64,000 nt of DNA from contig CAZAXH010000007.1 of assembly GCA_964489065.1 (NCBI GenBank), positions 74,672 through 138,671 of the forward strand, given 5' to 3'. The first letter of the stretch is position 1. Each line of letters begins with the position of its first letter. The stretch is from an uncultured Planctomycetales bacterium. GTDB lineage: Bacteria; Omnitrophota; Gorgyraeia; Zapsychrales; JANLHA01. Shown here in pieces: positions 5,125-43,085 of the stretch. Made by a program: the position numbers and the translations under genes. The notes under the pieces were generated by a model that saw only the letters and a program-made list of their open reading frames with translations, made no database searches and was not told the DNA's origin.

Positions 5125-5282
5125 GAGAAATTCCTCCGCAGGACGGTGCACCCCCTCAAAACTCCGTTCACCGGCCTTAGAGACATTAATGTCCTAGGCG
5201 GACGGGATAAACACAGGACAAAAAAAGTCCTGGCTCACCGCCAGGACTTCAATAGTCATCATATATTCGTTACCGGAAATTT

Positions 5283-6038: not shown

Positions 6039-8036
6039 TCACGGCGACCCCTGAATCATTTGATTAATATTTCTTTCGATGCGCCTCTCGACAAAGTCCG
6101 GAATCCTTTTCTGAATAAGAGCCTTGACCTGGGAAGGCAGCCACTGGAAATTAACCGCATCCACGGGACCGGATAATTGAAATTCAAAATTATAATTTAA
6201 GGTCTCCGGATTCTTTTCTCTCAACAACTGGGCCAATTCCAAAGACTGTTTTATATAAAACGATTCCATAAGAATCGAAATACGGCTGGACACCATTTTC
6301 TGGGCCGAGAGAGAAAAATTACCCCGGATATGGACCCCGTCGGAATTCAGGCTGAACCGGTCAAAATGGATTCCCGACGGATCCATAACCACGGACAACG
6401 AAAGCGTGTCAAACCGTAAATGTTTCATGGCATGAAACCCGAACGCGGTGGAAAACCACTCCAGGAATCTCACCCGGCTCAAGACACCATCTGTGACAAG
6501 CATTTTTCCCTTCATACTGAACTGATCGCCTAAACGGCTAAAATAGTGGCCCGACACCTGCCCGGATAAAGAAGAAAGCCCCGGCCAATCTTGATGCCAA
6601 TCCTCCAGGCGCAAATTCCGCAAATCCAAAGACAAAAAAGACCGGAGGTCCCCATCCGCTCCTTTATTGACCCACATCCGGCTGGCTATCTCCCCCGAAT
6701 ACAGCCGCCCGGTCAACGACAAATAGCTAACACCATTTAACTGCGGATTCCAAAACATGTCGATACCGGTTAAATGAACCTCCCCGGGCGGACACAATAC
6801 AGTCAGTTCCTCCACCCCCAAACGAAGGCGGCTAAAGACATCCTTAACATGCATTCCGGACAGCCGGAATTCGACCTTAGCGTCCCCGGGAAGGGACCAC
6901 AAAGACCGGACCAACAAGGTGACCGCACCGGACGAAATCCAATGGTCATGCCTGATTTGGCTCTGAATATCCCCCTGTATACTGTGACAGCCCGGGAGGA
7001 CCTTCGCAAGTTTAGGCGATTGCGCCTGAAACGAAACATGGGTCGAGAGTTCCCCCTTGGTCTCAAGGCCGCCGCTGATCTTCACCGGAATACCATTCGC
7101 GTCAAAACGGATATCTTCCACAAGGATCTCGGCCGGAGTAACCCTGACCCTGCCGCGCATATCCAGGATGACCAAATCAGGATCCAACCGCACAGCCGGG
7201 AGAAGCCCCGTCAAGAAAGGACCCTCTTCCGGATCGCGACGACGGGTATCCCAAAGGGCATACCCGGACAACTCCGCCGTATGCCCGTCCCACAGGCCCC
7301 GCCAGCTCCCTTCGCCCCGGGGATGTTTTATGATCAAATCTTTAATACGGTTCTGCCCCGCCCCAAAATCCATGGCTAACTGGAACGTCAGGGCATCCCG
7401 GTACCCCAGAATCCTTCTTACCGGCCCCAGAAAGGAACGGCAGCGTCCTCCGGCGAGACAAAGACGGCCTTTCAATTCCAATTGCCGCTGAGTCTGCCGG
7501 AAAACAGCATTGATGTTCACTCCTCTATCCGGATACTGTTCCTCCTCCGAGGAAACGAGCCGCGCCTCCCGCACCTTTACAGTGAAACACGGGCGGTTCT
7601 GTCCTGACGGAGGGGACAGGACAGAACCGAGGTCGCCCCAAGCCTGAAGGAGCGCCGGATAATTTCCGCGGAAAGATCTCAGGTAAAAAAAATAAAAAGA
7701 TATTTCCCGTTCAAAAAAATATTTCTTAACCGAAAGCCTTAATACAGCCGTGGAAACCCGGGCTAAAACACGTGCAGAAGCCCTTCCTTTTTGCCCAGCC
7801 GTCCGTTGAATAAAAAAATTTTTAACAATCACGCCATTAGGAGGGAGAAAAAACACAGGTCCTGCCTCGAGACGATAATGCGGGAACTGTTCATTCAGAC
7901 TGGTTAAAAGCAAATCTTTTAAAACATTCAGGCGCCACGTCCCTAGCCCCAGAGCGAGGCAAAACGACAGAAGAATAACGGCCCCGCACCCGAGTAAGGG
8001 TTTAATACAATATCGTTTCGAATGGAATGCCATCAA
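6039..8036 (-). CDS. large AsmA-like envelope protein (hypothetical)
   Basis: 665 aa, N-terminal TM anchor then long beta-rich region; family assignment tentative. Confidence 0.35.
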   Translation of the reverse strand: MMAFHSKRYCIKPLLGCGAVILLSFCLALGLGTWRLNVLKDLLLTSLNEQFPHYRLEAGPVFFLPPNGVIVKNFFIQRTAGQKGRASARVLARVSTAVLRLSVKKYFFEREISFYFFYLRSFRGNYPALLQAWGDLGSVLSPPSGQNRPCFTVKVREARLVSSEEEQYPDRGVNINAVFRQTQRQLELKGRLCLAGGRCRSFLGPVRRILGYRDALTFQLAMDFGAGQNRIKDLIIKHPRGEGSWRGLWDGHTAELSGYALWDTRRRDPEEGPFLTGLLPAVRLDPDLVILDMRGRVRVTPAEILVEDIRFDANGIPVKISGGLETKGELSTHVSFQAQSPKLAKVLPGCHSIQGDIQSQIRHDHWISSGAVTLLVRSLWSLPGDAKVEFRLSGMHVKDVFSRLRLGVEELTVLCPPGEVHLTGIDMFWNPQLNGVSYLSLTGRLYSGEIASRMWVNKGADGDLRSFLSLDLRNLRLEDWHQDWPGLSSLSGQVSGHYFSRLGDQFSMKGKMLVTDGVLSRVRFLEWFSTAFGFHAMKHLRFDTLSLSVVMDPSGIHFDRFSLNSDGVHIRGNFSLSAQKMVSSRISILMESFYIKQSLELAQLLREKNPETLNYNFEFQLSGPVDAVNFQWLPSQVKALIQKRIPDFVERRIERNINQMIQGSP

Positions 8037-8559
8037 TCATAAACTCTATTTTGTCTATGCTGTATACAGCCCGGTAGCGCCTGAAGAATGGGGATGTAAA
8101 GTAAAAGTCTTTCGACTTCCTGAATATAAGGCTGAGTTGCTGAGATTGCACGATTTGCTGCTTTATGGCCTCGGCCCCGGCTTCATCTTTTTCCTTCCGG
8201 GCGATATGATAGCTGTTCACCAAGGCAAAAAGCGATTCCGGGACATCATTGGGATACTGTTCCAGAAAGATATGCCAGGCAGATTTTGCCGAACGGGTGT
8301 CCCCGGAGAGAAGGAAATATTCCGCCTTGGCGAATAAAGCGGTCTTATGGTACTTTGAATGCGGCAGCCTTAAAATAGAATTGTAATACGCATAAGCGGC
8401 GTCCCGCCGCCCTGTCTTGGCGGCTTCCACAGCGCTGCTGTACAAATCGCCCCCGGACGCCGCGTCAACATAAGTGCAGGCAAGAGTTGCCATCCCCCCC
8501 AACATCCCCAAAAAAACAATAACGGACATCCGGCATTTTTTAAAAACCTCTCGGCCCAT
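8002..8559 (-). CDS. TPR-like lipoprotein (hypothetical)
   Basis: ORF 8002..8655 trimmed to ATG at 8559 (avoids overlap with REC gene); ...GMATLAC lipobox; helical repeats. Confidence 0.4.
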   Translation of the reverse strand: MGREVFKKCRMSVIVFLGMLGGMATLACTYVDAASGGDLYSSAVEAAKTGRRDAAYAYYNSILRLPHSKYHKTALFAKAEYFLLSGDTRSAKSAWHIFLEQYPNDVPESLFALVNSYHIARKEKDEAGAEAIKQQIVQSQQLSLIFRKSKDFYFTSPFFRRYRAVYSIDKIEFMIDGIPFETILY

Positions 8560-8566
8560 GATAAGA

Positions 8567-8938
8567 TTATTCCCCGAGAATATCGCGGATCCGGGCAAGA
8601 AGCTCGGAAGTCTTAAAAGGCTTTGCGAGCACGTTAAAGAAGGACTCTTCGACATTGGCCCCCAAATGTTCCTCTTCTTTGGACAGGGCGCAGGTTAAAA
8701 ACAGCACCGGGATATCTTCTGTTTTCGGATCGGCTTTGATCAGGCTATACGCTTCGGTCCCGTCCATCTCCGGCATCAGGATATCCATTAGGATAAGATC
8801 CGGATGAACATCCCTGGCCTTTGCAATACTGTCCAGGCCGCTTGTGGCCGTAAGAATTCTATATTGAAATTTTTCTAAAGTATCCGAAATCAATTTCAGG
8901 TCTACCGGATCATCATCAACCACTAAAATCGTCTTCAT
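8567..8938 (-). CDS. single-domain response regulator (CheY-like receiver)
   Basis: ILVVDDD...DLILMDILMPEMDG...VLAKPF. Confidence 0.85.
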   Translation of the reverse strand: MKTILVVDDDPVDLKLISDTLEKFQYRILTATSGLDSIAKARDVHPDLILMDILMPEMDGTEAYSLIKADPKTEDIPVLFLTCALSKEEEHLGANVEESFFNVLAKPFKTSELLARIRDILGE

Positions 8939-9015
8939 AGAGAGCTCCTTATTTTACCAGACGATCCTTCCCGGGGAATCATTCGCGGGACGCCCCCTCG
9001 GCGATAGGTCGCGCT

Positions 9016-9399
9016 TTATTGAGCCGAATTCAGGATCAATTTGATGATATCCCGACGGCTGATTACGCCGATGACCCTGCCGTTTTCAACGATGGGAACC
9101 CGGCGCACATTTGTTTTAATAAAAAACTCGCAAATTTTAACGACACCATCATTGGGGGAAAAAAATTGCACATCCAACGACATATAATCCCCCACGACTT
9201 CCTGGGAGGTGATAACGTCAGAGACTAAAAGACTCAGCAGGTCCTTCTCGGTAATAACCCCGATCAGATTCTCCTCCTTATCAACGACCGGTAACCCACT
9301 GATCTGCTTCTCGACCAATATCCTCATCACCTCAAGCAATGGGGTATCCTGATGCGCCACGACAACATTTTTGACCATAATATTTCTCGCCTGAAGCAT
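9016..9399 (-). CDS. CBS-domain pair protein
   Basis: ORF 9016..9468 trimmed to ATG 9399 with GGGAGG RBS; two CBS motifs (GLPVVD..., RVPIVENGRVIGVISRRD). Confidence 0.8.
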   Translation of the reverse strand: MLQARNIMVKNVVVAHQDTPLLEVMRILVEKQISGLPVVDKEENLIGVITEKDLLSLLVSDVITSQEVVGDYMSLDVQFFSPNDGVVKICEFFIKTNVRRVPIVENGRVIGVISRRDIIKLILNSAQ

Positions 9400-9418
9400 A
9401 CGGCCTCCCTCTTCTGTT

Positions 9419-9784
9419 TTATTCCCCCAAAGCGGATCGGACAGCGGACAGGACACGATCGCTCTCAAAAGGCTTAATGATATAATCGACGGCCCCTGCG
9501 CGGATCGCTTTCATTAAAGCCACCCGCTGATCCACAGCGGTCACCATAATGATCTTGGCTTTCCCGTCAATGGCCAGGATATCATGGATCGCCTCGATGC
9601 CGTCCTTCTCAGGCATCACGATATCCATCGTCAGGAGGTCCGGCTTCAGCTCCCGGAAGACGTCCACAGCTTCTTTGCCGTTATTACATTCCGCAACGAC
9701 ATCATATCCGGCCTGGACAAGAATATCTTTGAGCATGGAACGGATGATAGGCGCGTCGTCAACTATAATAATTTTTTTTGACAT
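9419..9784 (-). CDS. cheY: chemotaxis response regulator CheY
   Basis: 121 aa; IIIVDDAP...DLLTMDIVMP...IIKPF. Confidence 0.85.
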   Translation of the reverse strand: MSKKIIIVDDAPIIRSMLKDILVQAGYDVVAECNNGKEAVDVFRELKPDLLTMDIVMPEKDGIEAIHDILAIDGKAKIIMVTAVDQRVALMKAIRAGAVDYIIKPFESDRVLSAVRSALGE

Positions 9785-9798
9785 AAGGACTCTCTTTG

Positions 9799-10401
9799 TT
9801 ACGTAGTATTAATAATGTAACTTAAAATCTTTTCACTTTCCCCCAGAGGTAGAAGATACATATGGCAATGGATATCGTTTTTAATGACATGAAAGCAGCT
9901 TTCAATCATGAGAATATCGTTCTGTTCTGGGAGGGCACTGACCAGGAATTCCTGAAACACCGTCCCCACATAATCGTTGACGACCACCGGAGGCGTCGGC
10001 TGGATGTCGATACCGAAATCGGACGCAAACACACCGGAGATAGCGCTGGCAAGGATATTCCCGATTTCCTGAACCGCGCTGGCGGCGTAGAGATCGAATT
10101 CCTTCGTTGTGCCCACCTCCCGGCGCAGCATCAAATCAGCCAAAATCATGCTGTCCTGAATCGGGACGTGAAATAAAAATTTAAAGTTAGCCTCCCCGGT
10201 CAGATCTATAAATGCCCCAACGACATTCGCATTTTCCCGGTTGACCTGCTCCGTGACACTGGTAATATCAGCTAAAAAAGCATGCTCCATTTCAATCCGG
10301 GCGCCAGTCTTAATAAGCTTCGAAAAAACCTGCGAGGCTTTATCAATGCTAATTTTGGCAACGAGCTTGATAGCCCGGTTGATTTTAGATTCGTTAGACA
10401 T
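9799..10401 (-). CDS. cheC: CheC-family CheY-P phosphatase
   Basis: Two S/D-x3-E-x2-N-x~22-P motifs (..TEQVNREN..HVP and ..SAVQEIGNIL..QPTPP). Confidence 0.75.
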   Translation of the reverse strand: MSNESKINRAIKLVAKISIDKASQVFSKLIKTGARIEMEHAFLADITSVTEQVNRENANVVGAFIDLTGEANFKFLFHVPIQDSMILADLMLRREVGTTKEFDLYAASAVQEIGNILASAISGVFASDFGIDIQPTPPVVVNDYVGTVFQEFLVSALPEQNDILMIESCFHVIKNDIHCHMYLLPLGESEKILSYIINTT

Positions 10402-10403
10402 AA

Positions 10404-10898
10404 TTATAATTCCTCCACGGCCTCACCGAACTTTTGACACAGGATAATCCCGGTTTCCAAAAGAAAAGTCACCCGGCATCCTTTATCGCCCCCTGTCTTG
10501 GAAGCCATAATTCTAATCCCGAAATTCTTCAGTTGTTCCCTGGCCGCCTTTTCATTGAGTTCACCGATATTAAGCGTGCAATCCTTCAAAATCCTCCCCC
10601 CCCCGAAGATCTTGGCTACAAAATGATGGGAATCAATTCCATAACAGGACGTCAGCTGCCGGATCAATTCCGGAACCGCCGTGTTTGCGTATTTGGCTTT
10701 TTTTTCCTTTGCCTTGGAAGAATTTTCATCCGCGTGAGGCATCATAATATGAACCATCCCTCCCACCTGCCGTGCCGCGGCATACAAGCAGACAGCCACA
10801 CACGAACCCAGCGTGGTTTCAATCACCTGGGGCGACTGGCCCATTTTCATGTCGGCAACACCGACTATAATTTTGTCGAAATCTTGATGGAAAGCCAT
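10404..10898 (-). CDS. cheD: chemoreceptor glutamine deamidase CheD
   Basis: ..TLGSCVAVCLY.. signature of CheD. Confidence 0.85.
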   Translation of the reverse strand: MAFHQDFDKIIVGVADMKMGQSPQVIETTLGSCVAVCLYAAARQVGGMVHIMMPHADENSSKAKEKKAKYANTAVPELIRQLTSCYGIDSHHFVAKIFGGGRILKDCTLNIGELNEKAAREQLKNFGIRIMASKTGGDKGCRVTFLLETGIILCQKFGEAVEEL

Positions 10899-10900
10899 AA

Positions 10901-13651
10901 TTATAATGTCGAACGGATAATGGCATGAATATCAAGTATCAGTGCCACCCGTCCGTCCGCCAAGATCGATGCCCCGGATATCCCCTGGACTTTAGCAAAA
11001 TAACTTGGCAAGGATTTAATAACAATTTCTTCTTTCGCCAACAATTCATCAACGACAACCCCAACCCGGTTAATCCCGTCGGATACAATGACCACATTAT
11101 GGCAATCTTGCTGGGTCCGGTCTGTTCCAGAGATCTGAATAACCTGTTCCAAACTCACTAAACTGAGCGCGTGTTCTCTTAATTTTACGATAGGATTGCC
11201 ATCAATAAAATAAATTTCCGAGGATTTTACTTTTATGATTTCAAGCACTGTTTCAACCGGAAAGGCATACGTATAACCCCCGATTTGAGCCAGCAAAACC
11301 TGGATGATCGCAAGGGTCAAAGGGATCTTGATCAGAAACGTCGTCCCCACCCCCGGCTCGCTCTTGATATCAATCATGCCGTTCAGGGAATGGATCATGG
11401 TTTTTACCAAGTCCATCCCGACCCCGCGGCCGGACAGGTCGGTTACCTTATCGCTAGTGCTGAAGCCCGGCAGGAAAATAATCCCCATTCTTTCCTGCTC
11501 CGTCATGGTTTCAAGTTTGGACTTATTGATCAGCCCCTTTTGAAGGGCCACCTGCACCACTTTGTCCAAATGAATGCCCTGTCCGTCATCCATCACTTCA
11601 ATGCATATACTATTACCGAGGTGAGAGGCACGCAGGGCTATTTGTCCGGCTTCTGGTTTCCCGAGCCGCCGGCGTGTCGTCATATCCTCAATGCCATGAT
11701 CAACGGCATTGCGGATCATATGCGTTAAAGGTTCTCCCAACGTGTCGATAATCTTCTTATCCAATTCCGTTTCCTCACCCTCAATGTGAAGAACGACGTC
11801 TTTCCCCACCTCTTTAGCCATATCACGGATGCTGCGTTTAAACCGGTTAAAAACCCCTTCGATAGGAACCATCCGGGCATTCATGACGCTGTTCTGAATT
11901 TCCGAGGCGATTTTTTCCAAATGATTTGTCGTTTCATCCAGAAAATTAATATTATTAACCGATTCTTTCTCCAGTGTTTTCTCTTTGAATGCCTGCAAAT
12001 ACCCACTCAAGTTCACGATAATCTGCCCCAGGTCCTGTTCCGCCTGCATTCTTTTCTCCGGCGCCTTGGTCTCAGTCATGGTCTTGATCCCCTTCTGAAG
12101 AGCGCCAACGGAAGCGGAAAAATTTTTGATCAGCATCTTTATATTGTCTCTCTCCCTCACCGCCTCCTTCAAGAGATGCCCTACCCGAGAAAATTGCGCG
12201 CGGATCGTCACCAATTCTCCTGAAAGGATCATGAGCTTGTCAATCTTCCGGGCATCTATCTTTAAAATTGAAATGCTCTGGTCCCCGGCTTCTTTCCGGG
12301 CTTGCGCAGGAAGTGGAGCCAGGCTCTCTTCCCGGGCAGAAAGGGCCGCGGTTTCGTCGTTGGCCTGCACAGCAACCCCTTCCGTCAAATCATCCAGGTC
12401 TTCCACTCCTTGACGTTCAATCGCCAAAACTCCAACCCCGTCCAGCGTTAAAATTCTACGGATACTATTTTCATTCTCAACCGAACAGAAGTAGATCCCT
12501 ACTTTGATATCCCCCGCGGTTCCCTCAATCTCAAGGAGTGGAGGCTGAATGGCAATGACAACGCCGCTTTTCCTGAGCCGCTCTTCCATTAAAGCGATCT
12601 TCAGGACTTTTTCCGGGATGACTTTTTCCACCACACAAAATATTTTAAAAAGGTCGTATCCCTGATCCAGGGCAGCGAAAAGACGTTTTTTATCAGCGTC
12701 TTTGAGCCGTTTTAAGACTAACACTTCTTCAATCGGGGTTATGGCCTCATCTTCAGCCCCCCCCGTCCATTCCTCAATACTCATATCATGGCAATCTGGG
12801 ACATTTTGCCGGATGTACACCTGCAGCTTCCCGCTGATTTGCCCGACATCTTCCGGAGGAGGCACATGCCTCTGAACAGCCATAAGGATCATGGAAAGCG
12901 CTTCCGTACTTTTAAGAAACAAATCCTGTGGGAAAGAGGCCGGGTCCCGCCGGTCCTGCCAGGCAAAAACAATAACAAAAATTTTCCTGGCCATATCTTC
13001 CAGGATGGGAGAATTTAAAAGCACGGCAAAACGGAACAATTGCTGCACTATCTTTAAAAGATCATTCCAAACCGGCTTCGCCCCGCCCTCCTCCAACGCT
13101 ATTTTTTTTCGCAGGCGAAGAACAAGCTCTTGACAGGAGTCAAGGATAACTGCATCCGAAAGAAAAATCGGGCCCGAGAGGGAAGAGTCCTTTTGCTCCA
13201 AGGCAGGCGAGTCATGCGCATCCTCCTGGCCCAAAAGCACCCCTTCTAACCGGCCCATAACGGGCTGAAGATCGACGGCCCCGTCTTTCTTCTCTCTTAA
13301 CTCAAGCAATAGCTTGGCTAAACAATCAAATGCAGTGAACAAAACATCAAAAATATCGGCACGAAAATCCAACTCATGGTCGCGAATTTTCTGTAAAACG
13401 GTCTCCAACTTATGGGTCAACCGGACAATTTTATCAACCCCGACAAAAGAGGCCGTGCCTTTAATGGAATGCGCTGCCCGGAAAAGGCTGTTCAGATTTT
13501 CAGGAGAAACGGCCTTGTTTTGTTTTAAGGCCTCTTCGCATTCCAGAAGTTTTTCATTCAGGATACGGAGATTCTCTTCACTCTCAGCAAGGAAATCCGG
13601 GATGAAATCCCTAATTTCCTTCGGTATTTTATCATACTCCCTCTGCCCCAT
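10901..13651 (-). CDS. cheA: chemotaxis histidine kinase CheA (916 aa, extended linker)
   Basis: Hpt (HSIKGTASFVG), dimerisation, HATPase_c (DDGQGI..GRGVGMD) and C-terminal CheW-like domain; ~300 extra residues between Hpt and dimerisation domain. Confidence 0.9.
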   Translation of the reverse strand: MGQREYDKIPKEIRDFIPDFLAESEENLRILNEKLLECEEALKQNKAVSPENLNSLFRAAHSIKGTASFVGVDKIVRLTHKLETVLQKIRDHELDFRADIFDVLFTAFDCLAKLLLELREKKDGAVDLQPVMGRLEGVLLGQEDAHDSPALEQKDSSLSGPIFLSDAVILDSCQELVLRLRKKIALEEGGAKPVWNDLLKIVQQLFRFAVLLNSPILEDMARKIFVIVFAWQDRRDPASFPQDLFLKSTEALSMILMAVQRHVPPPEDVGQISGKLQVYIRQNVPDCHDMSIEEWTGGAEDEAITPIEEVLVLKRLKDADKKRLFAALDQGYDLFKIFCVVEKVIPEKVLKIALMEERLRKSGVVIAIQPPLLEIEGTAGDIKVGIYFCSVENENSIRRILTLDGVGVLAIERQGVEDLDDLTEGVAVQANDETAALSAREESLAPLPAQARKEAGDQSISILKIDARKIDKLMILSGELVTIRAQFSRVGHLLKEAVRERDNIKMLIKNFSASVGALQKGIKTMTETKAPEKRMQAEQDLGQIIVNLSGYLQAFKEKTLEKESVNNINFLDETTNHLEKIASEIQNSVMNARMVPIEGVFNRFKRSIRDMAKEVGKDVVLHIEGEETELDKKIIDTLGEPLTHMIRNAVDHGIEDMTTRRRLGKPEAGQIALRASHLGNSICIEVMDDGQGIHLDKVVQVALQKGLINKSKLETMTEQERMGIIFLPGFSTSDKVTDLSGRGVGMDLVKTMIHSLNGMIDIKSEPGVGTTFLIKIPLTLAIIQVLLAQIGGYTYAFPVETVLEIIKVKSSEIYFIDGNPIVKLREHALSLVSLEQVIQISGTDRTQQDCHNVVIVSDGINRVGVVVDELLAKEEIVIKSLPSYFAKVQGISGASILADGRVALILDIHAIIRSTL

Positions 13652-13675
13652 GGCCTCTCTTTCGCCTCCGCGAGT

Positions 13676-14722
13676 TTACCCCGCCGCCCCTAAAAGCATC
13701 AGGGCGTCCGGGATCAGAGCGACATCCAGTTCCAGGTCCACAACACCCGCCTGATAAGCCGCTTTGGCCATTCCGTAAACAACGCTGCTCACGGCATTCT
13801 GGCCGACGACAAAAGCTCCCCGGGCGTGCATAGCGCCCAGCCCTTTTTTCCCGTCATCCCCCATCCCGGTTAAAACAACTCCGACAGCCCGGGAGCCATA
13901 AAGTTCAGCGACGGATTCAAATAAAACATCACAGCACGGGGTATGAAGGGAAACCTTTTCCGTTTCTTTGTAAAGGCAAATCCGCGTTCTCTGCCCATGC
14001 CGCTCCAACTTCATCTGCCACCCGGCTTTAGCGATATAACAAAAATTACTTTGCAAAATATCCCCGTTTTCCGCTTCTTTGACAGACATCTTTGATTTCT
14101 GGTTCAGGCGTTCCGCAAAACTGGCCGTAAAATTTTCCGGCATGTGCTGCACCCAAACAATCGGTTTCGTGTTTTCCGGGAGAGACGATAAAATGCTCAT
14201 CGCAGCCTGAACCCCTCCGGTGGAAGAACCGACGGCGATAACATCAACCGGTCGTTTTTTCAGCCCCTTTAAGACATCCTGTGCCCCCAAAGCCACGGCA
14301 CTTCCATCCGGAATCCCCTCAGCGGCCCCGGACTGACCGACAATAGCTATAATCTTTTGAACAAGCTCTGCCCTGATCTCCTTAAATTTTTTCTCATGCC
14401 AAGCCGGTTTGGGATAATAATCAACCGCGCCTAGTTCCAAGGCCTGTATCGTTTCGACCGCCCCTTCCCGGGTCAAGGCGCTTAACATCAATACCGGAAG
14501 AGGACATTCTGCCATGACAATCTTTAAAACCTCCAACCCATTCATGACCGGCATTTGATAATCAAGGATCAGGATATCAGGATTCAAGATCTTAACCAGC
14601 TCAACCGTTTGCTGTCCGTCGATAGCGGCCCCCACGACCTTAATCCCGCTATCTCCTTCCAGCAACTGCGTTAATACCCGTCTAAAAAGATTGGAATCGT
14701 CCGCGACGACAACTCGAATCAT
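13676..14722 (-). CDS. cheB: protein-glutamate methylesterase CheB (REC + methylesterase)
   Basis: Start moved from GTG 14743 to ATG 14722 (AGGAGA RBS); REC then CheB_methylest domain (..GSSTGG.., ..GMGDDG..). Confidence 0.9.
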   Translation of the reverse strand: MIRVVVADDSNLFRRVLTQLLEGDSGIKVVGAAIDGQQTVELVKILNPDILILDYQMPVMNGLEVLKIVMAECPLPVLMLSALTREGAVETIQALELGAVDYYPKPAWHEKKFKEIRAELVQKIIAIVGQSGAAEGIPDGSAVALGAQDVLKGLKKRPVDVIAVGSSTGGVQAAMSILSSLPENTKPIVWVQHMPENFTASFAERLNQKSKMSVKEAENGDILQSNFCYIAKAGWQMKLERHGQRTRICLYKETEKVSLHTPCCDVLFESVAELYGSRAVGVVLTGMGDDGKKGLGAMHARGAFVVGQNAVSSVVYGMAKAAYQAGVVDLELDVALIPDALMLLGAAG

Positions 14723-14756
14723 GGCGATTGGTAGTCTCCTCACATTTTAAATTCTT

Positions 14757-15626
14757 CTAAACGACCCGGCGATAGACTCCCATCCCGACAAATTCAAATA
14801 AAGCATCGCGATACGGCAAATTTTCAGCAAGGCTGATGAAAACATAGCCGTAAGGCGACATGTGGTGGTAAATTTTCTTTAAAACGTCCCGTTTACTGAC
14901 GTCATCAAAATAAATCATAGCGTTCCGGAAGAACACGACATCAATCCGGTCGGTCACAAACGGCATCAGCAGATTATGCTGCCGGAACTTGACCTGATGG
15001 ATGATATCGTCCGATATTTTATAACGTTCTTCCTGCCCATGTCCCATGTCCACATGCACCGTCTGGAAATATCTTTTAAGATATATCTCTGGCAGCTCCC
15101 GGATACTACGGGCGGTGTAAACCCCCTGCTGGGCAACCGCCAGGACCTCGCTGTTGATGTCCGAAGCATAGATAGACACTGCCCAAGACGGGTCAGATTT
15201 AAAGAATTCCCGGCACAGCATCGCGATCGTGTACGGCTCTTCTCCTGTCGCGCATGCCGCCGACCAAAGACGCAAGGATTTCTGCCCTGCTTCCAATTTC
15301 CGGTCCCGCAAATCCGGGAGGATATGATTTAATAAAAACTCAAACTGTTTGGGGTGCCGGAAAAAATTCGTTTCATTGGTCGTGATCGCGTTGATAAAAG
15401 TTTCGACCTCCTTCTTATCATGCGATTTCAAAATAGCGATATACTGTTCAAAAGTGGTCAGGCCCAATTGTGCCAACCGTTTCCGAAGACGGGCCACGAC
15501 AAGGGTTTTCTTGGTCTCCCGGAGAAATACCCCCGTCCGTTCATACATAATTTCCCGGATCAGGGCAAACTCATGATCGGTAATTTTTAAAGAAACATCT
15601 ATTTTTTCGCCCAAGGGAGTCCTCAC
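14757..15626 (-). CDS. cheR: chemotaxis protein methyltransferase CheR
   Basis: CheR N-terminal + SAM-binding domain (..TNETNFFR.., ..LRLWSAACATGEEPYTIAM..). Confidence 0.9.
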   Translation of the reverse strand: MRTPLGEKIDVSLKITDHEFALIREIMYERTGVFLRETKKTLVVARLRKRLAQLGLTTFEQYIAILKSHDKKEVETFINAITTNETNFFRHPKQFEFLLNHILPDLRDRKLEAGQKSLRLWSAACATGEEPYTIAMLCREFFKSDPSWAVSIYASDINSEVLAVAQQGVYTARSIRELPEIYLKRYFQTVHVDMGHGQEERYKISDDIIHQVKFRQHNLLMPFVTDRIDVVFFRNAMIYFDDVSKRDVLKKIYHHMSPYGYVFISLAENLPYRDALFEFVGMGVYRRVV

Positions 15627-16045
15627 CGCGCGTGGTTTTGAATATATTTAAATAACGTCCATTTATCACCTTCATCAACGGCCGAAAAACAGGCTCCGAT
15701 GTCAAACAACTCTTCTCCCAGCACTTCCAGCCGGACAACATTAGCCAAAACCGTCAGAGGGTTGAACAAAGGGGCGCTGACTTCCCTGAAAAATTCTGTT
15801 TTGAATTTCTCCCAGCCTGGCAGGGCCAATTCGATTCGCAGCAAAATTCCCACATCGTATTTAACCTTAGATTCGAAAAGGATACCCCCACAACTGATAT
15901 TTTTCAACAAGCCTTCCGTGATATGATCACGCCCGGGGGACAACAGATCTTTAGCGGTGAACGGTGAGCAGTGAATGATATATCGGCGCGGAATCCGGAC
16001 ATATTTTCGATGTCCGGTGACATTGTCCTGCATTTCGTCGCTCAT
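15623..16045 (-). CDS. PilZ-domain (c-di-GMP-binding) protein embedded in che operon
   Basis: Trimmed to ATG 16045 (AGGAG RBS); RKYVRIPRR ... NISCGGILF = RxxxR and D/NxSxxG PilZ motifs. Confidence 0.65.
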   Translation of the reverse strand: MSDEMQDNVTGHRKYVRIPRRYIIHCSPFTAKDLLSPGRDHITEGLLKNISCGGILFESKVKYDVGILLRIELALPGWEKFKTEFFREVSAPLFNPLTVLANVVRLEVLGEELFDIGACFSAVDEGDKWTLFKYIQNHAR

Positions 16046-16080
16046 GAATCTGACTCCTGGTCTGAACTGGCCTCCCCCGG

Positions 16081-16539
16081 TCAAGAGTTGATTGTCCGGG
16101 CGATTTTCTCTAAGGAAAGAAGATATATGATCCTCCGGTCGATTTTGGCGATCCCGAGTGCATACCCTTCCCGGGCCTGCAGCAAATCTGTCGGGACGGA
16201 AATATCCTCAGGAGACACAATATGCAACTTAACGACATTAGAAACCCCAAAACCGAACAAATTCTGCCCAAATTCGGAAATGATTATACGGCCGACTTTC
16301 TCATCAGTGGCATGAAGGAACTTCGCCAGGTTAATAAGAGGCAATATTTTCCCGCGCAAATTTATCGCTCCATCAATGGCCGGCAACGCATCCGGGACAG
16401 GGACAATCATGATATTCGCCGAAATGATCTCTTTGACTTGATCGATGGAAACCCCATAGCACGATTGTGCGACCGAAAATTCGACAACGCGCACATTTTC
16501 AGGAGATACATCAGCGGATTTAATTTTGGGAATTTCCAT
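16081..16539 (-). CDS. cheW: chemotaxis coupling protein CheW
   Basis: Trimmed to MEIPKIK...; CheW-like fold (..VVEFSV..YGVSIDQVKEI..GAINLRGKILPLINL..). Confidence 0.8.
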   Translation of the reverse strand: MEIPKIKSADVSPENVRVVEFSVAQSCYGVSIDQVKEIISANIMIVPVPDALPAIDGAINLRGKILPLINLAKFLHATDEKVGRIIISEFGQNLFGFGVSNVVKLHIVSPEDISVPTDLLQAREGYALGIAKIDRRIIYLLSLEKIARTINS

Positions 16540-16561
16540 AATACACCGTAACAACCATAAG

Positions 16562-17065
16562 TCAGGGTGATGTTTGTGTCTGGGCCATCTCCTGCATGAT
16601 AACAGCATGCATCTTCTGTAAATCCAAGATAGCAATCATGCGGTCTTCCACGCGGGCTACCCCTCGGATATATTCTTTCCCGATTTTCATGGCCAAAAAC
16701 TTGGTCAAGTCGACCTGACGAAGATCCACACGGATATTATCCAGGATTTCATCGATAATCAGTCCGCACTCTTCATGATCAATGAGGGCGATAAGAATCC
16801 TGGATTTCGCATTAAACGGTTTTTGCGGCAACAGAACTGTCTTCCTCAAATCGAAAAGCGGGAGAATTGTGCCACGGCAATTAATAAGACCAAGACAAAA
16901 ATCCGGGACCTGGGGCACCGGGGTAAAAGGGACCACCCGGATCACTTCGGTAATAAGGTTAATATCCACAGCGTACTCTTCTTCCGCCAACTTAAAACAA
17001 ACAAACTGCAAATATTCTCGGGGACTCTGAAGATCTTCTCCGGTATTGTCGTGTCCGTTATTCAT
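16562..17065 (-). CDS. cheW: chemotaxis coupling protein CheW (second copy)
   Basis: ..YLQFVCFKLAEEEYAVDI..GLINCRGTILPLFDLR.. Confidence 0.85.
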   Translation of the reverse strand: MNNGHDNTGEDLQSPREYLQFVCFKLAEEEYAVDINLITEVIRVVPFTPVPQVPDFCLGLINCRGTILPLFDLRKTVLLPQKPFNAKSRILIALIDHEECGLIIDEILDNIRVDLRQVDLTKFLAMKIGKEYIRGVARVEDRMIAILDLQKMHAVIMQEMAQTQTSP

Positions 17066-17098
17066 GGCTTTTCCTCGTTCAAGAATCCCTCGGGGTCC

Positions 17099-17476
17099 TT
17101 ACACAAAAGGAGCGATGACGACTTTCAATTGATCGGACGTAAAAGGTTTAACAATATAACCCTTCAGGTTGGGATGAACACTATAGGCCTGCTTCAACTT
17201 TTCTTCGGTACCGGCCGTCGTCACCATCACAACCGGGATATTCGCCACGGCCGGGACTTTCGCGACCCCCTCAATAAACTCGATCCCGTTCATCTCCGGC
17301 ATATGCCAATCACAGAGAATCAGGCCAACCGTCTTAAAATGACTCCCCAAGACCTGGATGGCCTCATCGCCATTCCCGGCTTCCAGAATTTCATTATTAA
17401 AACCTGCCTGGCGGATTATCTGAATAATGATTTTCCGTTGCACGCCCGAGTCATCCACCACCAGAATCTGCTTCAT
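17099..17476 (-). CDS. cheY: chemotaxis response regulator CheY
   Basis: ILVVDDS...LILCDWHMPEMNG...YIVKPF. Confidence 0.85.
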   Translation of the reverse strand: MKQILVVDDSGVQRKIIIQIIRQAGFNNEILEAGNGDEAIQVLGSHFKTVGLILCDWHMPEMNGIEFIEGVAKVPAVANIPVVMVTTAGTEEKLKQAYSVHPNLKGYIVKPFTSDQLKVVIAPFV

Positions 17477-17490
17477 AAATCCCTCAAATG

Positions 17491-18075
17491 CTATTCATTT
17501 TTAAAAATCGCGGACAGGGTCAAATCAATCGAAAAAACGTTTTTTCCCCAAATAAAAAAACCGAATTCAATGTATTCGGCGTAATCGCTGTTGAATTTAA
17601 CGCCCTCCTGTATTTCGTTGATTTGGGTATCAGGGGCCGTCATGAATATTTCCTGATAACCTTCGCTGACCACCCGGTTGATGAACTGGCCTGTGATCAT
17701 ATTACATAACTCACTGCAAAAATCCGCCAGGGCGCCCTGTTTCAGGACATCTTCACCCGACAACCCGGCCGCACTCATCAATTTTCGCATATAATATTCA
17801 TCCGCATAAAGGATAATGGCGCCGCAAGGCTGATTTTGTGTGATCTGCCGTTCCGACAGAAACAGTCCTATCCAGGAAACAAGGGCTCCCTCCGCAAATC
17901 CTTTATCTTTAGCACGGGCAAGCATGCGGTATTTTTCGTTCCACTTAATATGATTTCTTTTGAGCACAGGCTCCTGGCTGAAACGTTCTTGACAGGTTGT
18001 CGCGACAACACCCTTCACGGCCGCGATCATGGCTTGTTCCTGAACGTTAGGAAGGACTAACTTCAACTGCGGCAT
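17491..18075 (-). CDS. cheX: CheX/CheC-like CheY-P phosphatase (single active-site motif)
   Basis: One D-x3-E-x2-N-x22-P motif (DFCSELCNMITG...MTAP) in C-terminal half; AAGGA RBS. Confidence 0.55.
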   Translation of the reverse strand: MPQLKLVLPNVQEQAMIAAVKGVVATTCQERFSQEPVLKRNHIKWNEKYRMLARAKDKGFAEGALVSWIGLFLSERQITQNQPCGAIILYADEYYMRKLMSAAGLSGEDVLKQGALADFCSELCNMITGQFINRVVSEGYQEIFMTAPDTQINEIQEGVKFNSDYAEYIEFGFFIWGKNVFSIDLTLSAIFKNE

Positions 18076-18345
18076 GGCTTGATTTCCTTAGTTTCAAAAT
18101 TTCTTATTAATGCCTTTAAATTGACCTACAACACAAAAACCACCCCGCGACATAATGAACTGGAACAGGGGTACCCCATGATCATAAATAAATTATTGGA
18201 AAAATAAAAATTATAATATTAAATATCTCCGGCCCGACTTCCAGGGTATTATTTTGCATTGTGTTAATTTGATTGTCAACGATCAACTCATATTTTTTAC
18301 CCCAATCCCCCCATCATATAAATGGGAGCCGGCTTAGAGATCCTC

Positions 18346-28330: not shown

Positions 28331-30253
28331 ATGAAAACATCTCACCGTCCGTTGGCAGATTCCGTTGAAATCCTGCATTCTTTCTTTTCGGCGGTTTTCC
28401 TTCCCTTTATTCTGGAAATCCCGGTCATCAGCCTTTTTTTCGGCACACAATCCTTAAAATTTCTCCTCCCGTTTATTTTTATGATTCTTTTGCCGGTTAA
28501 AATCGCCCTGTTTGCCGGGATATACGGCAGCCTGTCTATTCTGGCGTCGCAGCAAGAATATATCTTGACCGGCCCGCTTTTCCGGAGCCAAATCAAAAAA
28601 TTTTGGGGCCCTTATGCAGTCGTGCAATTTTTTCTGTTTCTCTTTCAGTTTGTTTCTTTCCTGGTCCGACCTTCCCTGGATTATACCTACTGGAACATCA
28701 TTCTGGAACCGGTCGCCGTCATGCTCTTTTGCATCTACATCCTCAAACGCAGTCACTTTGCCGGGGAAGCCGGTCCCCTCTTCAAGGTCAGGATTTCTCC
28801 CCGTTCCGCGATGCTGTTGGTGGGGCTCGTAGCCATGCAGATATTTTGTCAATTATTATTGAAACAGGGGAAACCGACGACGCCCCTGCCGGCGCTGGGG
28901 CTCTTGCTGGCCACGAAATATATTCACGCCGTCATGGTCATTTTCTTTAACCTGATTATATTCCAAGAGAGTTCCTACCACGTCCGACACCCTCAACCCC
29001 AAAAAGAACTCTTGCTGATCAACCCTTTAGGAGGAGGATCTATCCTCGAACTCTTAACATCCGTCATCCTGCGGTTTTACCCTCCGGTCTTTGTCGTTCT
29101 CTCGGCCCTGACTCCGGATGATTATACCGTCCGGAGTTTCTCAAGGGTTTTCTGGCGGTCCCGGTATGTCCGTCCAGGGCGGCTGGTGGCCATCACCTGT
29201 TTTACGAGCAACTGTTTTGAAGCGTACAAAATCGCCAAAGAATTCCGGAGGGCCGGATCCACCGTTATCATGGGGGGGCCCCATGTTTCCTTCGTCCCGC
29301 AGGAGGCCATGGAATTCTGCGACAGTGTCGTTGTCGGCGAGGTGGAAGGCATCTGGCCGGAAGTCGTCAGAGACTATGAAAATAACCGCCTTCAAAAAAT
29401 TTATGAAAGCCGCCCCGCGGACGAAACGGTTTACGAAACAATTTATCAAAAACTCCTCAACTCCCCTCCGGAAATCATCTACAACTATCTGGAAGCCAGC
29501 CACGGCTGTAAATTCCGCTGCTCTTTCTGCTGCGTCTCCGCCCTCTGCCAGGGCCGCGTGGGGCACAAAACGGTCGAACAGGTCACCGCCCTGATCAAAA
29601 AACTGCAAACAAAATACAAGATCATTGCTTTTCTTGACAACAACATCTATTCTGACCCGGCGTATGCCAAACAGTTGTTCACGGCCATGAAGCCCCTAAA
29701 AATCAAATGGATGGCCAATTGCAGCATCGATATCGCCGCCAATGAACCCATTTTAAAACTCGCCCGGGAAAGCGGGTGCCAGGCCCTGCTCGTTGGGTAC
29801 GAGATCAGCACCTATTCCTTCGAAAAAAAGCAGGGCGAAAAATTCGCTCTGGCCGAAAAGTATGTGGAATTGACGCGAAAAATCCAAAAGACGGGAATCC
29901 GCGTGGAAGGGCACTTCATTATCGGGTTTGATTCAGACCGGCCGCAAGATATCCTCAAATACTGGCAATGCTGCTTCCGGATTTTCCCCCAATGGACCAG
30001 CCTGTCGGTTCTAACACCCCTGCCGGGCACCAGGCTTTACCGGGACATGCTCTCCGAAGAACGTATCCTCAACCAAAATTGGAGGCACTACTCCTGCTAT
30101 TGGCCGGTGTTCCAGGCCAAACATTTCTCCCACACATTGTTGAGCTGGCTCCACCCGGTCCTCTTTTTTATTTTTCTCTTTACCACCTGCCGGGCGGGAG
30201 TGATCCTTCTTATCGTGCTGATCGCCACGGTTCTGGGAAGCCTGCTTCTCTAA
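28331..30253 (+). CDS. membrane-anchored B12-binding (class B) radical SAM enzyme, paralog 1
   Basis: ~200-aa 6-TM N-terminus; B12-binding region (..VAITCFTSN..IMGGPHVSF..); CKFRCSFC = CxxxCxxC; C-terminal TM. Confidence 0.8.
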   Translation: MKTSHRPLADSVEILHSFFSAVFLPFILEIPVISLFFGTQSLKFLLPFIFMILLPVKIALFAGIYGSLSILASQQEYILTGPLFRSQIKKFWGPYAVVQFFLFLFQFVSFLVRPSLDYTYWNIILEPVAVMLFCIYILKRSHFAGEAGPLFKVRISPRSAMLLVGLVAMQIFCQLLLKQGKPTTPLPALGLLLATKYIHAVMVIFFNLIIFQESSYHVRHPQPQKELLLINPLGGGSILELLTSVILRFYPPVFVVLSALTPDDYTVRSFSRVFWRSRYVRPGRLVAITCFTSNCFEAYKIAKEFRRAGSTVIMGGPHVSFVPQEAMEFCDSVVVGEVEGIWPEVVRDYENNRLQKIYESRPADETVYETIYQKLLNSPPEIIYNYLEASHGCKFRCSFCCVSALCQGRVGHKTVEQVTALIKKLQTKYKIIAFLDNNIYSDPAYAKQLFTAMKPLKIKWMANCSIDIAANEPILKLARESGCQALLVGYEISTYSFEKKQGEKFALAEKYVELTRKIQKTGIRVEGHFIIGFDSDRPQDILKYWQCCFRIFPQWTSLSVLTPLPGTRLYRDMLSEERILNQNWRHYSCYWPVFQAKHFSHTLLSWLHPVLFFIFLFTTCRAGVILLIVLIATVLGSLLL

Positions 30254-35890: not shown

Positions 35891-36564
35891 GAAGAGCTTT
35901 CCAGCCAGAGATCAATCCCGGCTCGCGGCAAGGTGTTTTCTGCAATGATAATTTTATATTTCCCGGGGGTCATCCCTTCAAACATGACGCTCTCTCCCGC
36001 GCAATCCTTATCCTCCAATTCCCCCTCCTCATCCCAAAGAGTCACCCGGAAACGTTTCGACGCAGGCCAAGCCTGGCCCGGATTCAGGGTAACCCCCAAT
36101 GTTGAACGGTTATGCTCCCCGGCTGAAAGTTCTCCCCTCACTAAAAGGTCCCCAAATTTTTTTTGAAATACGGATGTGTGGCTCGCGCCCTTCCCTCCGG
36201 CCCTCAAAACATGTCCCGGGACGATCTGCGGACCGACCAGAATCTGGCCGGTTGTTTTCACCATCCGCAACACACCACGGGCGACAACCGCAACGACAAA
36301 AAGGACTCCGGGCCGGAGGCCCTGATGAACAAGGGTTTGGGCCGTTCGGGAAAGGCCCTCCGGGAGGGGAACAAACCCCTCCTTGTCCTGGAGCCGTTGA
36401 ATATCCATGACGGCACGCACATCTTCACGCAGACGGGTATCCCCGGCCATCAAGTTTTCCATCCTGTCCTTCTCTGCGGGTGACAGAAGACCCTGGGCAT
36501 AAGCGGCGATCCATTCATCGCCCACCCTGGCCCTTCTGTCGAAAGACTTATCTCTCACGGACAC
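35887..36564 (-). CDS. anti-sigma factor (membrane-spanning), cognate to upstream ECF sigma
   Basis: N-terminal anti-sigma-like helix (..WIAAYAQGLLSPAEKDRMENLMAGD..), central TM (VLFVVAVVARGVL), periplasmic tail. Confidence 0.5.
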   Translation of the reverse strand: MSVRDKSFDRRARVGDEWIAAYAQGLLSPAEKDRMENLMAGDTRLREDVRAVMDIQRLQDKEGFVPLPEGLSRTAQTLVHQGLRPGVLFVVAVVARGVLRMVKTTGQILVGPQIVPGHVLRAGGKGASHTSVFQKKFGDLLVRGELSAGEHNRSTLGVTLNPGQAWPASKRFRVTLWDEEGELEDKDCAGESVMFEGMTPGKYKIIIAENTLPRAGIDLWLESSS

Positions 36565-36586
36565 ATCCCTTCCTTCTCCTCCCCGG

Positions 36587-37192
36587 TCAATACATCAGGC
36601 TCTTGTCTTCGGCCATCCGTTTCATTTTTTTCAAAAGCCTCTGTTTACGGACGTAAAAACACGGCACGGAAATACCCAGCAAGCCGGCGATCTCCCTGGG
36701 TTTCATATTATCAGAAAAAAACATACGGTATAAATTGCGTTCCTCCTCACTCAAATCCGCCAAAAGAAGTTGCGCCGCCTCTTTTGAAAAAAAGCAGTCC
36801 CACCTCCGCCTGAAAACTTCTGCCGAAAGGGCGTCCAGAATTTCGGCGTTTTTAATCGGTTCAATCCGGTGGCTATACAGACCAGAAAAACGGCGGTGAC
36901 GGGTTCGCAGGAAATCGATGGTCTTCCGGATCACAACCGTCCTGAGATAATGGCGCAAGTGACAGCCGTTGCGTCCTTCATAAGCCCTGAGAATCGCATA
37001 ATCATTTTCCAGCAGGCAGAGGAAAAAATCATGATACAAATCCGAGAAGACTTCCGAAGAATCCTGATAAGCAAACCGGCGGAACGTCCGGAGGATGGAG
37101 TCGTAAATGAGGGGCGAAAACTGTTCGATAAAAATATCCCAACTTTGTTTGTCCCCCGAAAGACATTTCTTTAAAAGAGTATGATCGTCCAT
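36587..37192 (-). CDS. ECF (sigma-70 family) RNA polymerase sigma factor
   Basis: Region 2 (..FFLCLLEN..) and region 4 HTH (..REIAGLLGISVPCFYVRKQRLLKKM..). Confidence 0.85.
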   Translation of the reverse strand: MDDHTLLKKCLSGDKQSWDIFIEQFSPLIYDSILRTFRRFAYQDSSEVFSDLYHDFFLCLLENDYAILRAYEGRNGCHLRHYLRTVVIRKTIDFLRTRHRRFSGLYSHRIEPIKNAEILDALSAEVFRRRWDCFFSKEAAQLLLADLSEEERNLYRMFFSDNMKPREIAGLLGISVPCFYVRKQRLLKKMKRMAEDKSLMY

Positions 37193-42817: not shown

Positions 42818-43085
42818 TAAGTTTATGACAGTTTGAAATATTCTAACACAGCAAGAAACTTTTTGCACCAGAAGGTCTTTAAAATACCGGGATCTTTTTT
42901 ATCCTATGCGTCTCCCGGATTTTAACAGAAACCACTCTCTCTCCCTCGCCAAATCAGGCCCAAAATCTTCGCCGGTATTCCGTTGCTTCCCTCTTCAAAA
43001 AATAATATAATGTTTTGCATGATTTTTCCCCCCTTCTTTGTATAAACCAGGGCCGGGGATCCGGTCCAAAGCCAGGAGTTTTATT

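Follow-up and report, generated by a model that had tools for sequence, protein, structure and literature searches.

A PilZ protein embedded in an Omnitrophota chemotaxis-type operon: a candidate entry point for cyclic di-GMP

Introduction

How is a chemotaxis-type operon wired that holds a PilZ gene among its che genes and has no gene for a chemoreceptor (methyl-accepting chemotaxis protein, MCP) beside them? We have addressed this question for the segment at 8567-18075, minus strand, of a 64,000-nucleotide (nt) stretch of DNA (contig CAZAXH010000007.1, positions 74,672 to 138,671; hereafter the window). The host clade of the operon is Candidatus Omnitrophota, and the DNA comes from a metagenome-assembled genome (MAG). 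Our analyses favor, with a probability of about 0.6, a conventional chemotaxis phosphorelay whose receptors are encoded elsewhere, and into whose array or adaptation layer the PilZ protein would feed cyclic di-GMP (c-di-GMP).

Results

An operon with an embedded PilZ gene

The segment consists of 13 consecutive co-directional open reading frames (ORFs) in the order CheX-CheY1-CheW1-CheW2-PilZ-CheR-CheB-CheA-CheD-CheC-CheY2-CBS pair-REC3. A first-pass annotation, made from the DNA letters alone, had already given this number, order and strand, and the ORFs, Pfam matches and catalytic motifs bear it out. Judged from its sequence, the operon is a genuine and complete chemotaxis-type phosphorelay of an Omnitrophota bacterium. 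Its genes are separated by 14 nt (cheX/cheY1), 33 nt (cheY1/cheW1), 22 nt (cheW1/cheW2), 35 nt (cheW2/PilZ), 13-34 nt (cheR/cheB), 24 nt (cheB/cheA), 2 nt (cheA/cheD), 2 nt (cheD/cheC), 14 nt (cheC/cheY2), about 19 nt (cheY2/CBS) and 77 nt (CBS/REC3), with CheW2 starting at 16539 and the CBS gene at about 9399. At the PilZ/cheR junction the distance is -4 nt with the GTG start of cheR or +8 nt with its TTG start. The combination of CheC, CheX and CheD with two CheW proteins had been singled out as special; such sets, and che clusters with cheC, cheD and cheX that lack an mcp gene, have already been described in Desulfuromonas (PMC8235581), and for this reason the gene content of the operon is ordinary by itself. 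The feature of concern here is the following.

15623-16045, minus strand: single-domain PilZ protein of 140 amino acids (aa), predicted c-di-GMP receptor (PF07238, 21.8 bits)

The PilZ gene does lie between cheW2 and cheR, as first described, but the 4-nt overlap with cheW2 reported at the same time is not upheld. All orthologues begin at ATG 16045, which has GGAG upstream of it; the start is therefore almost certainly there, which leaves the 35-nt gap and makes the overlap an artefact of the longest-ORF rule.

Sequence motifs and predicted fold of the PilZ protein

Close homologues of the PilZ protein are few (12 clusters), and across them R13, K14, R17, S51 and G54 are invariant. These residues belong to the two motifs expected of a c-di-GMP receptor, RxxxR (RKYVR, residues 13-17) and [D/N]xSxxG (NISCGG, residues 49-54). 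When 30 sequences are aligned, R13 remains invariant and R17 almost so. The concern that the motifs might prove degenerate on alignment was thus checked, and both are intact and conserved. Between two barrel strands (residues 75-86), the subfamily carries an insertion of the form [LIV]PGW[ED][KRQ][FY]K.EF, which reads LPGWEKFKTEF here.

With 30 homologues as input, AlphaFold2 gave a model at a mean confidence (pLDDT) of 77 that agrees with the six-stranded beta-barrel and following C-terminal helix of PilZ domains, and has a single such helix; an earlier model from 12 sequences had reached 66 and gave weak fold matches. In a Foldseek search of the PDB with the later model, each of the top 47 matches was a PilZ domain, mostly in complex with c-di-GMP. 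The best match was MotI/DgrA of Bacillus subtilis (E 8e-6, template modelling (TM) score 0.60), followed by YcgR of Escherichia coli. Taken together, motifs and model indicate that this is a canonical single-domain PilZ protein, and it would bind c-di-GMP through RxxxR and NxSxxG. The two-domain architecture of YcgR and MotI was not found, the protein having one domain in 140 aa.

MapZ, the CheR1-binding PilZ protein of Pseudomonas aeruginosa, was considered as an orthologue and ruled out on sequence and on fold ranking. A sequence profile search of the PDB returned MotI only, marginally (E 0.065), and no MapZ chain up to E 10; in the Foldseek ranking MapZ was 15th (TM 0.52, 15% identity) and did not stand out from other PilZ domains. 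Because of these two results the window's protein is placed outside the MapZ cluster.

Conservation of the PilZ gene within che clusters

A HMMER search of 1.84 billion representative sequences found 755 proteins at E <= 1e-3 and 183 at E <= 1e-10, and among the 150 best listed matches nearly all are 125-150 aa long. Genomic context was surveyed in 13 genome loci (the outcome of a scan over one genome per species), 16 metagenome loci (from a scan with a 26-sequence alignment) and six contig look-ups, which amount to about 27 distinct loci; individual loci are given L numbers below. Twelve of the 13 PilZ-bearing genome loci are labelled Candidatus Omnitrophota or Omnitrophus and the other an uncultured Planctomycetales MAG. 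Wherever enough flanking DNA was available, the locus was a che cluster.

The nearest locus, JAGOJP010000052, has a PilZ protein 99% identical to that of the window, with the remaining proteins at 89-99%, and the complete 3.36-Mb chromosome OY759724 shares this gene order, with identities of 57-84%. Synteny within the window's clade extends outward to rubredoxin, FNR-like and CobW-like genes upstream, and to REC3, a tetratricopeptide repeat (TPR) gene and a gene for a 665-aa protein downstream. More distant Omnitrophota loci read [CheX-CheY1]-CheW1-CheW2 or CheV-PilZ-MCP(1-3)-[CheW]-CheR-CheB-CheA-CheD-CheC-CheY2, and their MCP genes begin 1-120 nt past the PilZ stop codon. An MCP gene directly follows PilZ in about 18 of the roughly 27 distinct loci, and most Omnitrophota loci have a CheW2/CheV-like gene directly before it. 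Even relatives at 27-35% identity, from a Nitrospirota MAG and other MAGs, are paired with an MCP: the Nitrospirota locus L019 reads MCP-HDOD-PilZ-MCP-ParA-CheW, L023 is similar to it, and L021 (GCA_964617105) reads CheR-CheA-CheB-PilZ-MCP-CheW. The place of the PilZ gene is thus conserved over at least three phylum-level labels.

This conservation across phylum-level distances is our main evidence that PilZ would work with the receptor or adaptation layer. Together with the intact motifs and the PilZ fold, it supports the connection to c-di-GMP that had been proposed at first reading, and a functional link of c-di-GMP to the chemosensory pathway via PilZ is well supported by comparative sequence analysis. 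Among the adjacencies of PilZ, that to MCP is the most widely conserved and that to CheW2/CheV the most consistent within Omnitrophota, with CheR as the neighbor in the window's clade. Our literature search on links between PilZ and chemotaxis found no description of a stand-alone PilZ subfamily embedded in che operons. While c-di-GMP acting on chemotaxis is a known theme, the new part is this che-embedded PilZ subfamily with its PGW insertion.

The fold matches raise a different explanation, namely that PilZ is a c-di-GMP-dependent brake or clutch on a motility machine, either a flagellar stator or rotor (as are YcgR, MotI and MotL) or a pilus ATPase, that shares its expression with the che genes and might, like FtgA, be parked at the array. 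In its favor, MotI/DgrA and then YcgR lead the structural matches, and the PDB profile search likewise puts MotI first. Stand-alone PilZ brakes are known (MotL, as cited in PMC11522434), and FtgA of Actinoplanes, a che-cluster accessory protein, binds CheA/CheW and then stops the motor (PMC11522434). However, the structural likeness is generic for the PilZ fold, with TM scores of about 0.5-0.6 to all PilZ structures, and the protein is without the second (PilZN) domain of YcgR and MotI. Its conserved neighbors are MCP and CheW/CheV genes, and never motor genes, in the approximately 27 loci. Since PilZ is single-domain and motor genes are never its neighbors, we consider a brake unlikely.

One further arrangement was seen at L019:5628-7563: downstream of the PilZ-MCP pair come genes for a ParA-like ATPase and for a 372-aa protein that carries a CheW domain at its C-terminus. 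The latter two resemble the ParC/ParP array-positioning pair.

Receptors are probably encoded elsewhere

Searches with tblastn using eight MCPs, and with Pfam over all larger ORFs, revealed no MCP gene in the 64-kb window. The absence of a chemoreceptor noted at first reading is thus correct locally; as a special trait it does not stand, since relatives carry MCP genes, with MCPsignal, HAMP, 4HB and CheW-REC domains confirmed by Pfam in their clusters. The interval between PilZ and cheR is free of an MCP gene in the window's clade and, independently, in L016/L017. Compared with E. coli Tsr, which has 36 heptads (36H), the MCPs of the relatives show one 7-residue deletion per arm, roughly symmetric around the hairpin tip, and arm lengths of 121 and 118 residues, which places them in the 34-heptad (34H) class. 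A profile of these receptors also recovered an orphan MCP in OY759724 (P0293), a 390-aa HAMP-MCP that is 34H-like and lies at 1.36 Mb, 1.3 Mb from the MCP-less che operon of that chromosome.

Based on these observations, the receptors of the window's operon are probably encoded elsewhere in the genome. The adaptation pair CheR and CheB is present, the CheB catalytic residues are intact, and the apparent activity of CheR, CheB and CheD implies receptor substrates. A receptor-less pathway was considered and rejected, given the MCPs of related clusters and the orphan MCP that a clade member has in its complete genome; that orphan and the apparently active CheR, CheB and CheD make such a pathway very unlikely. 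A false lead is thereby removed, in that the absent MCP gene is a matter of gene location and no sign of a receptor-less pathway.

Several features of the relatives' receptors were observed alongside. P0293 is divergently paired with a gene for a PAS-GAF-GGDEF diguanylate cyclase (L026:7897-11173, OY759724). The Omnitrophota 34H MCPs of L008, L010, L011, L012, L014 and L015 have a flexible tail of 40-60 aa that ends in acidic-x-L-[RSA]-[IFL]-[GA], for example EEKLRIG. CheR and CheB are tethered by an aromatic pentapeptide of the NWETF type; the E-x-LRIG type of end is different from it and may be a new tether motif. The receptors of L019 and L021 are without the E-x-LRIG tail and seem to belong to another heptad class. 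Between PilZ and the MCP, L007:1761-2288, L008:10679-11194 and L011:5269-5805 encode a small secreted Cache-like protein of 171-178 aa (dCache_2/sCache_2 match in L011), which may bind ligands in the periplasm as a separate partner of the receptor.

Proposed pathway and its output

In the pathway that we propose, 34-heptad transmembrane chemoreceptors encoded elsewhere would assemble with CheW1, CheW2 and CheA. CheA would pass phosphate to CheY2 and probably also to CheY1 and REC3, the extra receivers being alternative outputs or phosphate sinks, and CheX and CheC would take phosphate off the receivers. Receptor adaptation would involve methylation by CheR, demethylation by CheB and deamidation by CheD. 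PilZ would bind c-di-GMP via its canonical motifs and then dock on a receptor or adaptation component (an MCP, CheW2/CheV or CheR), so that the cellular c-di-GMP level could reset either the kinase output or adaptation. Direct analysis covered gene content, motifs, fold, conserved synteny, the receptor class of relatives and the MCP gene elsewhere in a relative's genome; from these we infer c-di-GMP binding by PilZ, its partner, the direction of its effect and the motility organelle under control.

Several observations weigh against this pathway. The window has no flagellar or pilus structural genes, and within the 64 kb covered no MCP of this very genome was located. Gene adjacency does not discriminate among MCP, CheW2/CheV and CheR as the partner of PilZ, and the pairing of PilZ with an MCP is not obligatory, since the window's clade and L016 keep PilZ without a neighboring MCP gene. 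The PilZ score of 21.8 bits is 0.7 under the PF07238 gathering cut-off of 22.5 (precomputed PF07238 matches exist for 9 of the 11 other homologues), and some distant relatives have DxGxxG in place of D/NxSxxG, with Gly for the motif Ser. The marginally sub-threshold score and this substitution would also suit a passenger gene without a role in the pathway, or a degenerate PilZ that does not bind c-di-GMP and serves as a structural adaptor only. We regard that explanation as highly improbable: the gene keeps its place in relatives as low as 27% identity and under three or more phylum-level labels, no motif residue varies within the Omnitrophota clade, and the junctions with the flanking che genes are tight.

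As to the organelle, the 34H receptor class, a CheA with a single histidine phosphotransfer (Hpt) domain and no receiver, and the presence of CheC, CheX and CheD suggest control of the swimming type. Receptors of 34H class are paired with the flagellar F8 class of chemosensory systems (PMC9321776; PMC11253619). Both the cluster MCPs of the relatives and the orphan MCP of OY759724 are of this kind and point to F8, an assignment drawn from the receptor class alone and not from the CheA class. The features of the type IV pilus (Tfp, Pil-Chp) class were not found, as CheA has one Hpt stretch and no receiver and the operon has no pil genes. Omnitrophica bins of a groundwater study were without chemotaxis and flagellar pathways (PMC5383146), a result not applicable to this lineage, and the literature on Omnitrophota motility yielded nothing decisive.

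Alternatively, as suspected at first reading, the pathway could be non-flagellar and act on type IV pili, on a secretion-type ATPase or on some other cell function, with c-di-GMP as a co-input. No flagellar genes were found in the window or in the examined flanks of the relatives (10 kb or less), the operon promoter is sigma-70-like and not sigma-28, and co-directional extra receivers, a CBS protein and envelope genes follow the che genes. The window also carries two MinD-T2SSE fusion ATPases at 49-54 kb. Type IV pilus genes lie a few kb upstream of the che cluster in three relatives, namely pilM-pilN in L012 and a PilB-like ATPase in L015 and L040; the latter (L015:3885-6590, L040:1-2589) is a protein of about 900 aa in which a c-di-GMP-binding MshEN domain and a T2SSE ATPase precede a C-terminal receiver, and a PAS histidine kinase is encoded next to it downstream. 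Against this, 34H is the cognate receptor class of flagellar F8 systems (PMC9321776; PMC11253619), the CheA is unlike the ChpA/Tfp type, and CheC, CheX and CheD are typical for swimming-motility systems. Moreover, just 3 of about 27 loci have pilus genes, at a distance of several kb, and flanks of 10 kb or less are too short to show that flagella are absent. We consider a non-flagellar output less likely than the pathway proposed above. A bolder proposal, which we think rather improbable, is that the PGW-type PilZ is a stoichiometric and so far unrecognised array component in several uncultured phyla (Omnitrophota, Nitrospirota and others), with intracellular c-di-GMP acting directly and allosterically on receptor-kinase coupling through CheW2/CheV or the MCP tip, and that the organelle steered by the Omnitrophota array is no flagellum but a type IV pilus or PilB-like ATPase.

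The Che proteins

The remaining 12 genes of the conventional phosphorelay favored here are as follows, all on the minus strand.

17491-18075, minus strand: CheX-type phosphatase of phosphorylated CheY, 194 aa, extended N-terminally by about 70 aa (PF13690, 31.2 bits; cut-off 27)
17099-17476, minus strand: CheY1, single-domain receiver, 125 aa (PF00072, E 4e-22)
16562-17065, minus strand: CheW1 coupling protein, 167 aa (PF01584, E 2.5e-32)
16081-16539, minus strand: CheW2 coupling protein, 152 aa (PF01584)
14757-15626, minus strand: CheR methyltransferase, 285-289 aa (CheR_N and CheR, E 6e-53)
13676-14743, minus strand: CheB methylesterase with N-terminal receiver, 348-355 aa (Response_reg and CheB_methylest, E 1e-56)
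10901-13651, minus strand: CheA kinase, 916 aa, with P1 Hpt, long linker/P2, P3, P4 and P5 (Hpt, H-kinase_dim, HATPase_c and CheW domains)
10404-10898, minus strand: CheD receptor deamidase, 164 aa (PF03975, E 7e-24)
9799-10401, minus strand: CheC-type phosphatase, 200 aa (PF04509)
9419-9784, minus strand: CheY2, receiver, 121 aa (PF00072, E 2.5e-29)
9016-9399, minus strand: CBS-pair protein, about 127 aa (two CBS stretches, E 4e-32)
8567-8938, minus strand: REC3, stand-alone receiver, 123 aa (PF00072, E 9e-23)

The D/S-x3-E-x2-N-x22-P active site of this phosphatase family occurs twice in class I CheC and once in CheX. The window's CheX has one D-x3-E-x2-N-x22-P site (residues 118-148), and its CheC keeps the second active site only (residues 108-138), matching the CheC_Thtogales model at 62.6 bits, which is under that model's cut-off. 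The CheX-CheY1 pair is kept in L010 and L013. CheY2 is the best-conserved receiver of the cluster, with 64-95% identity across relatives and a place always directly after CheC; its top NCBIfam model is archaeal CheY (121 bits). In all three receivers the acidic pocket, Thr and Lys are present.

In many relatives the counterpart of CheW2 is a CheV-like protein of about 310 aa with CheW and receiver domains, and Pfam confirmed CheW and Response_reg in L006:8992-9930, L013:1912-2835 and L015:9072-10004. The window's CheW2 is not a CheV, as Pfam finds a CheW domain only and no receiver. The catalytic Ser, His and Asp of CheB lie in GSSTGG, QHMP and GMGDDG, and the Cys and His motifs of CheD are GSCVAV and HIMMP. 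CheA carries the HSIKG phosphorylation motif, and among NCBIfam models it scores best with CheA_Halo (389 bits) and that of E. coli CheA (336 bits). We also observed in CheA a P1-P3 spacer of about 340 residues and a coiled-coil insertion of about 90 residues (~523-615) within or after the P3 dimerisation domain.

The CBS gene is found at this place only within the window's clade. In L005 and L018 an AOX gene sits between it and REC3, and REC3 is tightly adjoined downstream by the TPR gene. REC3 may thus belong to the downstream envelope unit or may be a phosphate sink.

Promoter and downstream genes

The following features flank the operon.

18251-18279, minus strand: sigma-70-like promoter with TTGACA, a spacer of about 17-18 nt and a TGC-AATAAT-like extended -10 element (consensus scan; about 180 nt upstream of cheX)
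8002-8559, minus strand: TPR protein with a lipoprotein-like signal peptide (weak TPR and weak BamD/YbgF-like matches; syntenic in L004, L005 and L018)
6039-8036, minus strand: 665-aa protein with an N-terminal membrane anchor (syntenic; identity 60% in L004 and 29% in L005)
5224-5250, minus strand: intrinsic-terminator-like hairpin (11-bp stem with six GC pairs, then a T-run)

The consensus scan upstream of cheX found no sigma-28 or sigma-54 sequence. The promoter lies in a block of about 55 nt, AAAAATATGAGTTG-N4-GTTGACAATCAAATTA..TGCAATAATAC.CTGGA, that is almost invariant in five clade genomes (18200-18300 in the window, L003, L004, L005 and L018). This block is conserved far beyond the adjacent intergenic DNA, and the excess conservation suggests a putative additional regulator binding site within it. 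The leader of about 180 nt between promoter and cheX matched no Rfam family.

The operon had been described at first as ending with the CBS gene and the extra receiver. In fact, co-directional genes (the TPR gene, the 665-aa gene and two small ORFs) run on beyond REC3 to the hairpin at 5250-5224, which is the first terminator downstream of this run and the sole strong one on the minus strand there. The TPR protein probably has an envelope role rather than a Che role, going by its signal peptide and matches. No Pfam or NCBIfam family was matched by the 665-aa protein, which is AsmA/TamB-like by appearance only, or by the two small ORFs.

Other elements in the window

The window holds a second cyclic-dinucleotide-related element, a c-di-GMP-I-GGC variant riboswitch aptamer at 45713-45794 on the minus strand (RF03167, 62.7 bits; gathering score 59). 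It lies just upstream of a gene for a 268-aa protein with an N-terminal receiver (44827-45633, minus strand). On the plus strand, 49453-51630 and 51646-53835 encode two tandem fusions of about 725 aa that join a MinD/ParA-type P-loop to a T2SSE (PilB/GspE-like) ATPase. At 33785-37192 (minus strand) a 701-aa CHAT-domain protein, an unannotated 225-aa protein and an ECF-like protein with sigma-70 region 4 are encoded in a row. Four B12-binding radical SAM proteins are encoded within 32 kb, at 28331-30253, 43038-44720 and 46526-48478 (plus strand) and 58575-59999 (minus strand).

Discussion

Precedents for a PilZ protein acting in chemotaxis are MapZ with CheR1, PlzC with CheX (PMC12799141), and the PilZ-MCP fusions Tlp1, Aer and Cbp1. 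MapZ (PA4608) of P. aeruginosa is, like the window's protein, a single-domain PilZ with a C-terminal helix. It ties c-di-GMP to chemoreceptor methylation, and the window's PilZ gene directly abuts cheR. In contrast, no sequence relationship between the two proteins is detectable, MapZ belongs to a proteobacterial cluster, and the window's subfamily has the PGWEKFK insertion and MCP and CheW/CheV genes as its most conserved neighbors. MapZ contacts CheR1 through helices alpha1 and alpha2, while our model has a single C-terminal helix.

In Azospirillum Tlp1 and Aer and Azorhizobium Cbp1, a PilZ module that senses c-di-GMP is physically tied to a chemoreceptor. The window's PilZ is a separate polypeptide rather than a C-terminal domain, and most relatives have MCP genes directly downstream of it. 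Unlike the fusions, the PilZ of the window's clade and of L016 is retained where no MCP gene is its neighbor. By analogy, the window's PilZ would correspond, as a stand-alone protein, to MapZ-CheR1 or to the PilZ-MCP fusion receptors.

PlzC is a YcgR-like protein and not a single-domain PilZ. In Vibrio cholerae it tunes chemotaxis via the phosphatase of phosphorylated CheY, CheX (PMC12799141), and a CheX gene heads the window's operon. This gene is, however, three genes away from PilZ, and CheX is missing in several PilZ-bearing clusters.

With regard to whole systems, F8 pathways share with the operon the 34H receptors (those of orthologous clusters), the CheA-CheW-CheR-CheB core and CheD, but the MCP tails of the relatives end in E-x-LRIG and not in an aromatic pentapeptide. 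The Thermotoga/Bacillus-type (F1) set and the Desulfuromonas clusters (PMC8235581) have the same combination of CheC, CheD and CheX, the latter also an mcp-less cluster, and the archaeal top models of CheA and CheY2 are an F1-like trait. The operon departs from the F1 type in its 34H rather than 44H receptors, in the single active site of CheC and in the embedded PilZ.

Coupling of c-di-GMP to chemotaxis is known from few proteobacterial cases, namely MapZ, PlzC and the PilZ-MCP fusions. If our reading is true, a stand-alone PilZ is fixed in the che operons of Omnitrophota, Nitrospirota and other uncultured lineages, and such coupling would be older and more widespread than these cases suggest. 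PilZ and its neighboring MCP, CheW/CheV and CheR would then form a compact module by which a second messenger could retune the receptor array.

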